Positions 33,239 to 62,470 of a stretch of 64,000 nt of DNA are shown in pieces. Under the pieces are notes generated by a model that did not search any database, was not told where the DNA came from, and was given only the letters and a program-made list of their open reading frames with translations. Source of the stretch: Candidatus Saccharimonadota bacterium (GTDB lineage Bacteria; Patescibacteriota; Saccharimonadia; Saccharimonadales; JAXHMH01). The position numbers and the translations under genes are program-made. The stretch covers positions 64,485-128,484 of the forward strand of contig JAXHMH010000004.1 in assembly GCA_034521515.1 (NCBI GenBank), in the 5' to 3' direction. Each line of letters starts with the position of its first letter. Positions within the stretch are counted from its first letter, which is position 1.

Positions 33239-33591
33239 TGAGTACAAAGTATAAAGTACAAAGTTCGAAGGTATATAAAATTCGATTAAAAAAAGGCGAT
33301 ACTGTAATTGTTCGTTCCGGTAAGCATAAAGGGCAAACCGGTAAAATTACAGCGGTACACCCGACTGAAAATACTGTAACGGTTGAAGGAATTAATATTG
33401 TCAAAAAACACCAAAAGCCTAACAAGGCGTATCCACAAGGCGGCATTATTGAAATAACTAAACCAATATCAGTAAGTAAGGTAGCGATGTATGACTCTGT
33501 CAATAAGAAACCGTCGCGAATTGGCTTTGAAATTGATAAAGACGGTAATAAGAAGCGTGTTCTTAAGACGTCTGGCAAGGAGGTGAAATGA
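33238..33591 (+). CDS. rplX: 50S ribosomal protein L24
   Basis: KOW motif KGDTVIVRSGKHKGQTGKI. Confidence 0.94.
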   Translation: MSTKYKVQSSKVYKIRLKKGDTVIVRSGKHKGQTGKITAVHPTENTVTVEGINIVKKHQKPNKAYPQGGIIEITKPISVSKVAMYDSVNKKPSRIGFEIDKDGNKKRVLKTSGKEVK

Positions 33592-33712
33592 TGTTTTGTT
33601 CCACCCAACATCAGGTTTTTGGTTTTAGGTTAGAGGTTATAGCTTCTATGAGCCTTCCGACACCTAGCACATACAGACTAACACCTACAAGTGACCGAAG
33701 GGAGATTGCATA

Positions 33713-34312
33713 ATGGCTGAAACTAAAGCAAAGACACCAATAGCTACTGCTCGTCTGAAACAGCAGTATAACGACACCTATGCTAGGGAACTACTAAAAG
33801 AGCTCGGTCTTAAGAACTTTAACCAGGTACCAATGTTACAGAAAATTGTTATTAACGTAGGTCTTGGGAAGGCTAAAGACGACAAAAAGGCTATAGAAGT
33901 AGCAGGCAATACAATCCGTAAAATAACCGGACAACAGCCGGTTGATACCTACGCCAAAGCTTCAATCGCAGGTTTTAAATTGCGTGAAGGAAATAAGATC
34001 GGCATAAAGGTAACTTTACGTGGCGATAAAATGTATGAATTCATGGATCGACTCATAAATATAGTGCTTCCGAGATTGCGTGACTTCCATGGCGTAAGTA
34101 CAAAATCGTTTGATAAATCTGGAAACTTTAGCTTAGGAATTCCTGACCAATCCGTTTTCCCGGAATTAACTTTTGATGAGACGACTACAACGCATGGCTT
34201 ACAGACAATATTTGTTGTTGATTGCGAAGAAGCCGCACATTCCAGGGCACTTTTAGAGAAGTTTGGTATGCCGTTTGAGAAATCTAATCAGCAAAGTAAG
34301 GGGGCTAAGTAA
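33713..34312 (+). CDS. rplE: 50S ribosomal protein L5
   Basis: 199 aa; LQKIVINVGLG, uL5 family. Confidence 0.95.
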   Translation: MAETKAKTPIATARLKQQYNDTYARELLKELGLKNFNQVPMLQKIVINVGLGKAKDDKKAIEVAGNTIRKITGQQPVDTYAKASIAGFKLREGNKIGIKVTLRGDKMYEFMDRLINIVLPRLRDFHGVSTKSFDKSGNFSLGIPDQSVFPELTFDETTTTHGLQTIFVVDCEEAAHSRALLEKFGMPFEKSNQQSKGAK

Positions 34313-34416
34313 TGAGTTTGAGCGAAATTAGCAACCAGAGCTTGAATTCATTTCAAGCCCTGCGCGATGAGAAAAACCGTAGGTTTGTTTCATGTATAGA
34401 TAAGGAGACTGAATAA
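34312..34416 (+). CDS. 34-aa micro-ORF between rplE and rpsN
   Basis: ATG 34312 overlaps the rplE stop (TAATG) and its TAA overlaps the rpsN ATG (TAATG). Peptide: [35 protein letters not shown] paralogous segment lies upstream of rplK. Confidence 0.35.
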
Positions 34417-34685
34417 TGGCCAAAAAAGCAATTGTGGCACGTGATGCCAAACGACAGAAAATGATTCAAAAGTATGCCGCCAAGCGAGCTGAATTAAAAG
34501 CTATGGGGGATCGTGAAGGTTTACATAAGCTACCTCGAAACAGCTCACCGACTCGTTGGAAGAATCGATGCGCCGAAACCGGACGTCCGCATGCTTATAT
34601 GCGTCAATTTGGTTTAAACCGAATTAGTTTTCGTGAGCACGCAAGTAAGGGAGAAATACCAGGCGTTACTAAATCAAGCTGGTAG
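34416..34685 (+). CDS. rpsN: 30S ribosomal protein S14 (long, non-zinc form)
   Basis: [15 protein letters not shown]..., ends KSSW; no CxxC pairs. Confidence 0.94.
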
Positions 34686-47768: not shown

Positions 47769-47799
47769 CCCCTGTTCTGCTACACTTTCTCGGTACTTT

Positions 47800-54320: not shown

Positions 54321-54482
54321 ATGCTAGAAATTGACGGCGTTCGAGCAACACTGTCTCACGATCCTAGAGTAGAGCTAGCGATTGATTTATCTACGCGCCC
54401 AGGCAGAGCAAACAAAGCTAGAATAGAGACGCATCTAGCGAAGCTATTAGACTACGATGAAGTTGTTGGAGAGATACTTTAA
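54321..54482 (+). CDS. 53-aa hypothetical ORF directly after nusG
   Basis: Below the ORF-track cutoff; ATG 3 nt after the nusG stop; MLEIDGVRATLSHDPRVELAIDLSTRPGRANKARIETHLAKLLDYDEVVGEIL; no SD. Confidence 0.25.
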   Translation: MLEIDGVRATLSHDPRVELAIDLSTRPGRANKARIETHLAKLLDYDEVVGEIL

Positions 54483-54648
54483 AAGACAATGAAACATCTG
54501 GCTTAGAAGGCGTTTCTGAAGCCTACGCGTTAACCATCGCACAGATTAGAGATATAATCGCTATTGAGCTTAGGGAAAAGAGAAGCCCGAGACTTGAGCT
54601 TGGCTCAAGCCCGGCGCGATGAGAAAAACCGTAGGTTTGTCTCATGGG

Positions 54649-54677
54649 TAGACAACAGAGGTAGACTGTAGTATAAT
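54649..54677 (+). promoter_or_regulatory. putative rplK promoter
   Basis: TAGACA (54649-54), 17 nt, TATAAT (54672-77); about 115-nt leader with GCGGTC-AAA-GACCGC hairpin. Confidence 0.5.
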
Positions 54678-55231: not shown

Positions 55232-55236
55232 CTATT

Positions 55237-55395
55237 ATGACTAGGGAAACTATCCATATCGCTGGCCTAGTTGAAATTTTAAATTCTGACAAATCCTGGG
55301 ATGAGCGCGAAGATCAAGTGAGGTCATTAGTAGAAATGCTGAGTGTACTGGGGATGTACGAGAAGCAACTGGCAGAGTACCAATGTGACTGGTAA
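55237..55395 (+). CDS. 52-aa hypothetical ORF between rplK and rplA
   Basis: Below the ORF-track cutoff; ATG 5 nt after the rplK stop; MTRETIHIAGLVEILNSDKSWDEREDQVRSLVEMLSVLGMYEKQLAEYQCDW. Confidence 0.25.
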   Translation: MTRETIHIAGLVEILNSDKSWDEREDQVRSLVEMLSVLGMYEKQLAEYQCDW

Positions 55396-55623
55396 CGCTG
55401 GGCATTCATGATCAGAATCTTGAGATTGTCACGCGGCTGTTCGGTGCCGAATGCTGCATGCTCATGTGTTGCCAGACGGAAGCATTTACCATTGTAGGCA
55501 TCCGTACAGAATTTAATAATTAATAATTTGTGGGACCCGGCCTTCCACAGGAAAGCCGGGGTTAATACCACGACCCCAACAGTAAACACGAAAGTTACCG
55601 TGGGGCAGAAAGGATAAGACATT

Positions 55624-56586
55624 ATGGCAAAAAAAGCAGAATTACTTGAGGAAGCAAAAGCCTTAAAGCTTGATGTTAATCAAAAAAACACCATTGCTGA
55701 AATTGAGGCAGCCATACAGAGCCATGAGCAAGGAGCTGTGAGTAATGAGGAAGCTCAAGGCTCTGACGACAAGGTCGTCGTTGCCAAGGCCGGCAAGCGA
55801 AGTGCCAAGGCTATAAAAGAGGCAGAAGAACTACAGGCCAAAGAAGAGCGCAAAGCACAAACTGCAACAGACGAAGAAACTACAGCCAAAAAGACCCACA
55901 AACCAGCTCGTTCACGACTAGAACGCCGAGCTAAAGGGTACAAAAACGTACAAAAACTTATAGAGGCAGGCAAACAGTATGGCGTGGCTGATGCTGTTGA
56001 GTTAGCGAGCAAAACCAGCCCGGTCAAATTCGATGCTACGGTTGAACTTCACGTTAATCTAAATGTAGATCCGAGACAGGCTGATCAAAATATCCGTGAT
56101 ACAGTTGTTTTGCCAGCAGGGACAGGCAAAGAAACAAGAGTGGCGGTGTTTGCCGATACCGCAGGCGTCGCAACAGCAAAAAAAGCGGGGGCAGACATTG
56201 CGGGAGAAGATGAATTATTACAACAACTGGATAAAGAACAGTTCGATTTTGATGTGCTCATTGCAACTCCAACAACTATGCCGAAACTAGGTAAATATGC
56301 TCGATTGCTTGGGCCAAAAGGACTTATGCCGAACCCAAAAAGCGGCACCGTAACAACCGACATAGCCAAAGCTGTTGAAGAAGCGAAAGCTGGTAGAGTT
56401 GAATATCGTGTTGATAGTACCGGAATTATCCATATGGCCGTTGGTAAAGTGAGCTTTGGTAAACATAAGCTTTTTGATAACGCACGTGCAGCCATCAAGA
56501 GCATTAGGGGTAACAAGCCAGCTAGCGTAAAGTCGTCATTCATTACATCAGCTCACGTTACAACCAAGTACTGCCCGATTCCATAA
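55624..56586 (+). CDS. rplA: 50S ribosomal protein L1 with a roughly 95-aa N-terminal extension; 3' end apparently frameshifted
   Basis: uL1 core from about residue 100 (KFDATVELHVNLNVDPRQADQNIRDTVVLPAGTGK). The ORF ends ...HVTTKYCPIP, whereas the -1 frame continues ...SIKVDVNDVNAL to 56618. Confidence 0.85.
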   Translation: MAKKAELLEEAKALKLDVNQKNTIAEIEAAIQSHEQGAVSNEEAQGSDDKVVVAKAGKRSAKAIKEAEELQAKEERKAQTATDEETTAKKTHKPARSRLERRAKGYKNVQKLIEAGKQYGVADAVELASKTSPVKFDATVELHVNLNVDPRQADQNIRDTVVLPAGTGKETRVAVFADTAGVATAKKAGADIAGEDELLQQLDKEQFDFDVLIATPTTMPKLGKYARLLGPKGLMPNPKSGTVTTDIAKAVEEAKAGRVEYRVDSTGIIHMAVGKVSFGKHKLFDNARAAIKSIRGNKPASVKSSFITSAHVTTKYCPIP

Positions 56587-62197: not shown

Positions 62198-62220
62198 AAC
62201 AGAGGGAAACAGAGTATACT
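62192..62220 (+). promoter_or_regulatory. rplJ-rplL promoter
   Basis: TTGACA (62192-97), 17 nt, TATACT (62215-20). Confidence 0.6.
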
Positions 62221-62340
62221 TGCGTTACCAAAGACAGCGACGGTTTTGTACGCTTATTGCGCATAAAAACATGATAATGTCGCCGAGGCAGCAGCAAAAA
62301 TTTAGAATTTTGATTCTAGATTTGAGAATGTTGAATCTTT

Positions 62341-62372
62341 AAAGTCTTTGGCAATGCCAAAGACTTTTTTAT
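62341..62372 (+). terminator. terminator/attenuator hairpin in the rplJ leader
   Basis: AAAGTCTTTGGC-AAT-GCCAAAGACTTT followed by TTTTAT, about 100 nt before the rplJ ATG. Confidence 0.65.
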
Positions 62373-62470
62373 TAGGTAACAGTGTGTTAATGCCGATGGG
62401 GCGCGAGAACTTACAAAACCATAAACTAGACACTAGCAACTAGCGTCTAACCACTACTCTAAGGAGTTAT

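Follow-up and report, generated by a model that had tools for sequence, protein, structure and literature searches.

A dispersed, covarying two-hairpin repeat of Saccharibacteria and its bridging micro-ORF at the rplE–rpsN junction

Related repeats and the locus

The closest described counterpart, in layout, of the element considered here is the mycobacterial MIRU, a short repeat interspersed between operon genes which, in the passage devoted to it in PMC12548453 (after Supply et al. 1997), inserts at start codons and carries an internal open reading frame (ORF) coupled to the flanking genes, an arrangement thought to let the insertion affect expression little. The present element occurs twice in a 64,000-nucleotide stretch of a Candidatus Saccharimonadota bacterium (assembly GCA_034521515.1, contig JAXHMH010000004.1, positions 64,485 to 128,484 of the forward strand; hereafter the window), once as an insertion between the ribosomal-protein genes rplE and rpsN, where it is bridged by a 34-codon micro-ORF, and once in the spacer between nusG and rplK. 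Like a MIRU it is found between operon genes, with the ends of its ORF overlapping or abutting the flanking stop and start codons, and, as with the MIRUs of that account, tandem in-frame copies are found (locus L208, 78-nt period). The two belong to different host phyla and are likened by layout, not by sequence. Unlike MIRUs as they are portrayed there, this element folds into two covarying hairpins and carries a mirror-repeat tail, occurs in tRNA leaders and, reversed, at gene ends as well, and shows conservation that is class-wide rather than genus-wide.

A second group of relevant repeats comprises BoxC, PIT and TMECO (Hoyne et al. 2000; Holder et al. 2015, PMC4666352), which are likewise dispersed and intergenic, with three blocks on one strand, one tolerated stem mismatch and no clear link to the function of neighbouring genes. 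TMECO motifs, however, are G/C-rich, proteobacterial and of class II (pyrimidine, purine and reverse-Hoogsteen blocks), with 9-nt stems and 3–6 nt loops (PMC4666352), whereas the present element is A-rich and of class I on its forward strand, has a hairpin of 35–50 nt as a spacer in Saccharibacteria and would form about seven triads (nine in Peribacteria) in a triplex that is predicted here.

The REP/BIME, Correia/NEMIS, ERIC, RUP/BOX and RPE repeats share with it the character of co-transcribed hairpin repeats in intergenic or intercistronic positions, found in both orientations and possibly acting as terminators or stabilisers. Unlike these, the element has a low copy number per genome, and no terminal inverted repeats, fixed short target duplication or transposase/RAYT were seen, the flanks covered being of 8 kb and no protein search for RAYT having been made; one head-to-head pair of elements was observed (L080). 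Its ends, AAGGGAAAAGAG and ...GTCTCAT(TA), are by inspection not inverted repeats and its flank duplications vary between 13 and 40 bp, so that it does not have the form of a MITE. Ribosomal-protein leaders, for example the L10 leader (RF00557) that is present at 62210–62379 of the window, are also structured RNAs beside ribosomal-protein genes, but they are single-copy, syntenic and protein-specific, whereas the element considered here has multiple copies, is sporadically distributed and occurs at tRNAs, groEL and rpoBC as well. Literature searches by taxon and keywords and by literal sequence strings returned nothing relevant to the element. The family and its combination of features hence appear to be undescribed, although the kinds of repeat that it resembles (MIRU, the BoxC/PIT triplex motifs and REP-like repeats) are known.

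The repeat family and its architecture

An exact search with the 20-nt core GAGAAAAACCGTAGGTTTGT, covering one genome per species, located the core at no fewer than 120 loci, nearly all of them in Candidatus Saccharibacteria together with a Peribacteria group, and often on several contigs of one genome. A covariance model, R1, was built from 82 copies. Both window sites are members of this widespread, covarying family: copy 1 (34321..34396, forward strand) scores 77.6 bits (E = 1.7e-20) and copy 2 (54572..54648, forward strand), which is near consensus, scores 90.6 bits (E = 3e-24), and the model finds no third copy in the window. The initial annotation, made from the sequence alone, had related the two sites through a 41-mer at 34354–34394 that recurs at 54606–54646 with two mismatches. 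That match holds, and none of 100 shuffles gave its like, but the repeated unit is larger than 41 nt and spans the whole of both copies, and what had been taken for a private pair of paralogues is part of the wider family. Two lesser similarities fall away, as the shared flanking GAGCTTG sits at differing, non-homologous positions within the first hairpin of the two aligned copies, and the resemblances further downstream (ATA/GTA, GAT/GAC) lie outside the conserved element, family conservation ending about 2–4 nt past GTCTCAT.

The element is about 77 nt long and consists, in order, of a purine tail, (A)AGGGAAAAGAGCAG, a variable stem, P1, that is either one hairpin or bifurcated, the dinucleotide CG and a conserved hairpin, P2. 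The latter reads GAUGAGAAAAACC-GUA-GGUUUGUCUCAU, also written NNGAGAAAAACC-GUA-GGUUUGUCUCNN, with a conserved A.G mismatch and a loop of 3–4 nt. The conserved unit extends from 1–2 bases before GGG to 2–4 bases past GUCUCAU. Around a quarter of copies contain a small, covarying third hairpin such as GGC-GAA-GCC, and the Peribacteria form is shorter, at 48 nt, with the internal P1 missing and a GC-rich hairpin upstream instead. In one Peribacteria copy (L107, 6333–6384) the interior of P2, comprising the mismatch and the loop, runs in the opposite sense to the sequence on either side of it, as though the hairpin had been flipped. Copies also lie on contigs binned as Verrucomicrobiia, Gammaproteobacteria, Acidobacteriota and Chitinophagaceae (L035, L039, L057 and L066), which are probably mis-binned Saccharibacteria.

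The pairing of P1 is borne out by double changes in 11 of its 12 pairs, with 94% of cells paired compared with 30–49% when the partner is slid, and by a covariation score of 0.37, the slid controls reaching no more than 0.083. The family sample was ascertained on the exact 20-mer, and the invariance of the P2 core is a result of that ascertainment. The base of P2 nevertheless covaries (ATGAG/CTCAT, TTGAG/CTCAA, CTGAG/CTCAG and others), as does the distal stem in copies found by the model, where the A.G mismatch is kept (AAACC/GGTTT, ACCC/GGGT, AACCGC/GCGGTT). Both window copies adopt the consensus fold, in which the hairpin noticed in the initial annotation is P2, and the whole element folds at -21.9 kcal/mol (z = -3.9) in copy 1 and at -27.7 kcal/mol (z = -2.6) in copy 2. 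Copy 1 is made up of a degenerate tail at 34321–34334 (AGCGAAATTAGCAA), changed at four of its 14 positions, P1 at 34331–34365 and P2, with one G.U pair, at 34367–34393; in copy 2 the tail lies at 54572–54585, P1 at 54585–54617 and P2 at 54619–54645. Across the family, G.U pairs outnumber A.C pairs, in small numbers, by 35 to 16 on the forward strand and by 12 to 4 where the neighbouring genes lie on the other strand, which identifies the strand shown as the folding strand whatever the local direction of transcription.

A further signal connects the tail with P2. Read in reverse, the consensus tail agrees with the P2 purine arm at 7 of 10 positions. Moreover, six copies have a P2 A-run of 3, 4 or 6 instead of 5, and in all six the A-run of the tail, otherwise of 4, follows with 2, 3 or 5 (Fisher p = 3e-7). 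A mirror arrangement also fits better than a direct repeat in L078 (AGGGGAGAG with GAGAGGGGA; 8/8 against 4/8), in L080 (GGAAAGGAGAG with GAGAGGAAAACC; 9/11 against 5/11) and in the Peribacteria form, where both blocks contain …GAGAG (9/12 against 6/12). A tail that mirrors and covaries with the purine arm in this way is the signature of a purine-motif intrastrand triplex, and the sequence does follow the corresponding code (G.G-C, A.A-T) in three consecutive blocks. The forward strand is of class I (reverse-Hoogsteen, purine and then pyrimidine block), and the complementary strand would give a class III pyrimidine-motif triplex. The loops depart from the ITxF definition, which places 1–6 nt between blocks, in that the tail is separated from P2 by the P1 hairpin in Saccharibacteria and by about 5 nt only in Peribacteria. 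The folding of one strand into an intrastrand triplex is possible in principle and should be regarded as a supported hypothesis, not a finding.

Insertion at the rplE–rpsN junction

Copy 1 lies between rplE (L5; 33713..34312, forward strand), whose product matches Pfam Ribosomal_L5 on the 99.98% identical Logan contig, and rpsN (S14; 34416..34685, forward strand). As the initial annotation had stated, the whole gap is filled by a single micro-ORF of 34 codons and 34 amino acids (34312..34416, forward strand), the ATG of which overlaps the rplE TAA and the TAA of which overlaps the rpsN ATG, with TAATG at both ends. The coupling of this frame to both neighbours, proposed at the same time, is likewise supported. 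A Shine–Dalgarno-like GGGGG is located 7 nt 5' of the micro-ORF, which is also called as a gene in the Logan contig, a public assembly.

The history of the junction can be read from 80 metagenomic relatives of rpsN, of which 77 are resolved at this point. In 69 of the 77, rplE and rpsN overlap (TAATG) or lie 0–3 nt apart, and the closest relatives have an empty site at the orthologous position. There the element is confined to L190 and, from a first scan, L018, apart from a weak match in L125. At the filled sites (the window, L190 and L018) the left and the right flank both align to the one empty-site sequence GAxAAGGAGAnTAAGTAATGG, representing a duplication of about 18–20 bp. Within the window the left copy of the junction, TAAGGGGGCTAAGTAATG (34297..34314, forward strand), contains the C-terminus and stop of rplE followed by a vestigial rpsN start, which is now the micro-ORF ATG, whilst the right copy, TAAGGAGACTGAATAATG (34401..34418, forward strand), contains the rpsN Shine–Dalgarno sequence, a vestigial rplE stop, now the micro-ORF TAA, and the rpsN ATG. 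The two are identical at 14 of 18 positions, and the end of the micro-ORF product, DKETE*, resembles the ancestral rplE end of relatives, EKENK*. Copy 1 has inserted into a junction, …AAGGAGnnTAAGTAATGG…, at which the two genes formerly overlapped, and the micro-ORF owes its ATG and TAA to the duplication of that junction.

Duplicated flanks are seen elsewhere in the family. Those scoring at least 10 (about 11–38 nt aligned) accompany about 9% of copies and 0.2% of mismatched controls, and their lengths are long and variable, at about 13–40 bp. At L030 (1–310) two different copies stand side by side and a 43-nt target consisting of the upstream gene's last codons and stop occurs three times, which indicates repeated insertion at one site. 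At L208 (1501–1695) the two tandem copies occupy the rpoB–rpoC junction and are read as one 64-aa ORF between 20-nt junction duplicates.

The rplE–rpsN junction also accommodates other sequences. Mutually unrelated inserts of 113–360 nt with bridging ORFs of 38–115 aa are found there in different relatives (L149, L165, L167, L195, L125, L099 and L049), several of them with the rplE end duplicated, and the junction is an insertion hot spot. The neighbouring rplX–rplE gap of the window (33588–33713) is similarly formed by one 41-aa bridging ORF that overlaps the stop codon of rplX and the start codon of rplE. The sequences on its two sides, AAGGAGGTGAAATGATG and GAAGGGAGATTGCATAATGG, have the appearance of a junction that was duplicated, but the insert is unrelated to the element, folds no better than shuffles (z = 0.41) and contains no degenerate copy detectable with R1 run without filters.

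Bridging reading frames in operons

Bridging ORFs are the rule where the element lies within operons. Intercistronic copies are located at rplE–rpsN, rplC–rplD, rpsL–rpsG, rpmC–rpsQ, rplV–rpsC, rplX–rplE, rpoB–rpoC and groES–groEL, with rpmC–rpsQ, rplV–rpsC, rplX–rplE and rpoB–rpoC confirmed by the neighbouring genes. One open frame joins a start near the upstream stop to a stop near the downstream start in 14 of the 16 intercistronic sense copies that possess both, about a quarter being expected by chance. Moreover, all nine bridging copies considered keep the tail and P2 in one reading frame (REKSS…RDEKNRRFV; p = 5e-5), and the phase between the two is random elsewhere (11/15/9 in tRNA leaders and 4/12/9 in antisense copies). 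Together these results argue for selection for translation through the element.

A profile, A4, made from 15 bridging peptides and run against called ORFs in public data matches 531 called ORFs of 33–46 aa, and the micro-ORF of the window belongs to it. Amongst the best 120 of the 531, 61 use the frame of the 3-nt loop (NRRFVS) and 58 that of the 4-nt loop (NRQVCL), 71 end in a KE-x-K-type C-terminus, which is encoded by the duplicated Shine–Dalgarno sequence, and the covarying P1 pair appears in the peptide as Q..L (about 106 of these 120), P..R or R..P. The CAG..CTG variant that encodes Q..L accounts for about 88% of bridging copies and for 10 of 82 in the general sample, an excess that suggests a sub-lineage specialised for coupled junctions. 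The peptide matches no family in Pfam or NCBIfam, and its conservation does not go beyond what the constraints on nucleotides and structure already impose. Judged from these sequences, the micro-ORF is probably kept open only for the passage of ribosomes between the genes, the peptide itself being, on the same grounds, incidental.

It is fairly likely that these observations reflect a dispersed repeat family behaving as a low-copy insertional element, a copy of which entered the rplE–rpsN junction with duplication of that junction and whose ORF has been kept for a ribosome relay. Copy 1 would have inserted into the ancestral overlapping junction with the duplication of about 18–20 bp, so that the left junction kept the rplE stop and a vestigial rpsN ATG and the right junction the genuine ATG of rpsN together with a vestigial TAA of rplE. 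Selection would then hold the micro-ORF in frame and free of stops. Ribosomes that finish rplE may re-initiate on the micro-ORF, melting the hairpins as they proceed, and then terminate on the rpsN ATG and re-initiate there, and this relay would preserve the translational coupling of rplE and rpsN that the insertion would otherwise have broken. Copy 2, in the nusG–rplK spacer, would represent an untranslated copy. The family is presumed to be mobile, and its copies may be tolerated only where they are harmless, such as in tRNA leaders that are removed by RNase P, at coupled junctions and at gene ends.

Genomic contexts

The surroundings of 121 instances of the element were surveyed. About 41 (~34%) are followed by a sense tRNA within 4–11 nt, about 28 by a Shine–Dalgarno sequence and start codon within 13–33 nt (the genes including rpsN, rplD, rplP, rpsG, tsf, ssb and groEL) and about 30 by an antisense gene or tRNA whose 3' end faces the element, with further copies located before 5S rRNA or reversed after 23S rRNA. 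Stricter gene calls give 32 sense–sense, 15 divergent, 10 antisense–antisense and 6 convergent positions, and the P2 side is always within about 7–18 nt of a gene boundary. The tRNA-adjacent copies have a TAnAAT (-10) box 28–38 nt 5' of the element, which places the element inside the tRNA 5' leader and not in the promoter. On the reverse strand the P1 hairpin is followed by CUCUUUUCCC / CUGCUCUUUUCCC and was flagged as terminator-like by a scan; every copy in a leader or operon has the forward orientation, and this terminator-like character would explain the bias through orientation filtering.

The distribution is sporadic. None of the five tRNAs of the window carries the element, only one of 41 other tRNAs in element-bearing genomes does so, and the ribosomal-protein operons of relatives contain only four matches in 287 kb. 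Searches of Rfam at gathering thresholds and at E <= 1–10 gave no match at either window site or for eight consensus copies, and this includes the families of ribosomal-protein leaders and the known ribozymes. The suggestion of the initial annotation that a shared regulatory RNA motif precedes two ribosomal-protein genes consequently survives in part: the two sites do share a folded nucleic-acid motif, but it is not a ribosomal-protein leader, because Rfam has no match, the motif is absent at the junction in about 70 of 77 relatives, about a third of copies are in tRNA leaders and others lie reversed behind genes.

Several other functions were considered for the element and set aside. No -35/-10 pair fits it as an internal promoter. 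A replication-oriented motif of the Chi/KOPS kind is rejected by a mean GC skew of 0.001 at oriented loci, with 53% of coding sequence on the element strand. The reverse complement, CTGCTCTTTTCCC, resembles boxA, but its orientation and context do not suit a boxA/nut-like antiterminator, and a phage origin is not supported, there being no match to the element in viral contigs.

Two further observations were made at stable-RNA genes. The motif CCCCTGTT (window 47769–47776 and many loci) adjoins the -10 box of tRNA promoters across Saccharibacteria in the arrangement TAnAAT-N2-CCCCTGTT, and may be a discriminator or an initial transcribed sequence of stable-RNA promoters. In L015 (1–2206) the 23S rRNA of one Saccharibacteria metagenome-assembled genome is interrupted by a group I intron-like sequence, and a reverse copy of the element lies 6 nt past its 3' end.

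Alternative explanations

A number of points weigh against a low-copy insertional element maintained by ribosome relay. A core that is identical across the class, together with near-universal intact pairing, is unusual for a selfish low-copy repeat and suggests selection in situ or a conserved partner, the sample being one ascertained on the 20-mer. The proportion of copies lying 4–11 nt before a sense tRNA is far above what the available target size would give. The flank duplication of copy 1 is on its own marginal (shuffle p ~0.05), and a target duplication at copy 2 is not supported (p = 0.34). Duplicated junctions and bridging ORFs also accompany the unrelated rplE–rpsN inserts of L149, L165, L167, L195, L099 and L049, and hence the duplication may be what any insert requires in order to survive there rather than the outcome of transposition chemistry. 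Finally, no transposase, terminal inverted repeats or autonomous parent was found, RAYT not having been the subject of a protein search.

It is conceivable, though doubtful, that the element represents a module of a new class, specific to Saccharibacteria and Peribacteria, which folds as a single strand and forms a triplex, with either a real function or a new mechanism of mobility. One option is an RNA triple helix, at a terminator or 3' end (or in a leader), that would govern how stable the most abundant transcripts are. Another is a single-stranded, folded DNA element that would spread with target duplications of 13–40 bp and of which a sub-lineage would have evolved a built-in frame enabling it to colonise coupled junctions.

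A cis-acting RNA for highly expressed genes of the translation apparatus is unlikely. According to this explanation the element would serve, in leaders or between cistrons, as a module that makes the transcript more stable, takes part in its processing or alters elongation and, when reversed, as a terminator whose U-rich 3' tail folds on the A/U helix of P2 as a 3'-protecting U.A-U triple helix. The enrichment of copies beside tRNAs, 5S rRNA, ribosomal-protein genes, groEL, tsf and rpoBC fits such a role, as do their retained pairing and the fixed distance at which they precede tRNA 5' ends, with a -10 box upstream of them, from which it follows that the element is transcribed in the leader. 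The Peribacteria copies, moreover, are mostly reversed behind genes and followed by a GC hairpin and U-rich sequence, and pyrimidine-motif intrastrand triplexes do form in RNA (PMC4666352). Against this, most tRNAs and ribosomal-protein operons of the same clade lack the element, a sporadic distribution that weakens the case for regulation by leader and 3'-end copies alike. The junction of the closest relatives is empty, translation through the operon copies would melt the fold, and the excess of G.U over A.C pairs persists where local genes are on the other strand.

This same strand preference, independent of local transcription, would suit an intrastrand triplex or hairpin site acting at the level of DNA, of the BoxC/PIT/TMECO kind, which might promote rearrangement or be bound by a protein and whose distribution would track single-strandedness at highly transcribed DNA. 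Such a site is distinctly improbable. The concerted A-run changes and the superior mirror fits speak for it, and the forward strand has the class I order of purine-motif triplexes, which form in DNA and reportedly not in RNA (PMC4666352). The consensus, however, offers only seven triads, one of them at the mismatch, a size that ITxF takes as near chance, the P1 spacer exceeds the loop range of known motifs, some 12–13 point changes in the tail are uncompensated and the bridging ORF, although compatible, is not explained.

That the micro-ORF encodes a functional small protein, with the copy before rplK as a paralogous or duplicated peptide-coding module, as had been proposed from the same-frame ORF that is indeed present there (54564..54671), is very unlikely indeed: a Shine–Dalgarno sequence and ATG are in place and the ORF is conserved in hundreds of assemblies and in frame at both ends, but no Pfam or NCBIfam family matches, the conserved residues are encoded by exactly those nucleotides whose conservation extends to untranslated and antisense copies, the covarying P1 base pair freely rewrites the peptide in its middle part, a 1-nt change in the loop shifts the C-terminal frame in half of the members, and the C-terminus is a relic of the end of the upstream gene.

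The neighbourhood of copy 2

Copy 2 is found between nusG, which is followed by a 53-aa ORF, and rplK (L11; 54797..55231, forward strand). Two putative promoters were identified beside it by consensus scan only. The first, TTAACC-17-TATAAT (54530..54558, forward strand), ends 13 nt 5' of the element and, if used, would cause copy 2 to be transcribed; the second, TAGACA-17-TATAAT (54649..54677, forward strand; 11/12), lies directly 3' of the element and 120 nt before rplK.

The 53-aa ORF (54321–54482) begins 4 nt past nusG and has no Pfam match, its sole NCBIfam match being DdrC, far under the cut-off. The rplK–rplA gap (window 55232–56586) is unusually long, at about 390 nt, and contains a 52-aa ORF (55237..55395), whilst rplA itself encodes 320 aa, including an N-terminal extension of about 95 aa rich in Lys, Glu and Ala.

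Implications

If the reading of an inserted repeat crossed by a ribosome relay is correct, hundreds of Saccharibacteria 'hypothetical proteins' of 33–46 aa would be bridging ORFs of a repeat and would have no product of their own. It would also provide a second independent case, after the MIRUs, of an insertion that survives in coupled operons by ribosome relay, and this in ultra-small genomes that were previously thought to be nearly free of repeats. As a phylum-wide motif in which hairpin covariation is combined with mirror-repeat covariation, the element offers a natural test case for intrastrand triplexes in vivo. It may, in addition, be of use as a marker for strain typing, or provide genetic tools for cultivable Saccharibacteria with a site that tolerates insertion.

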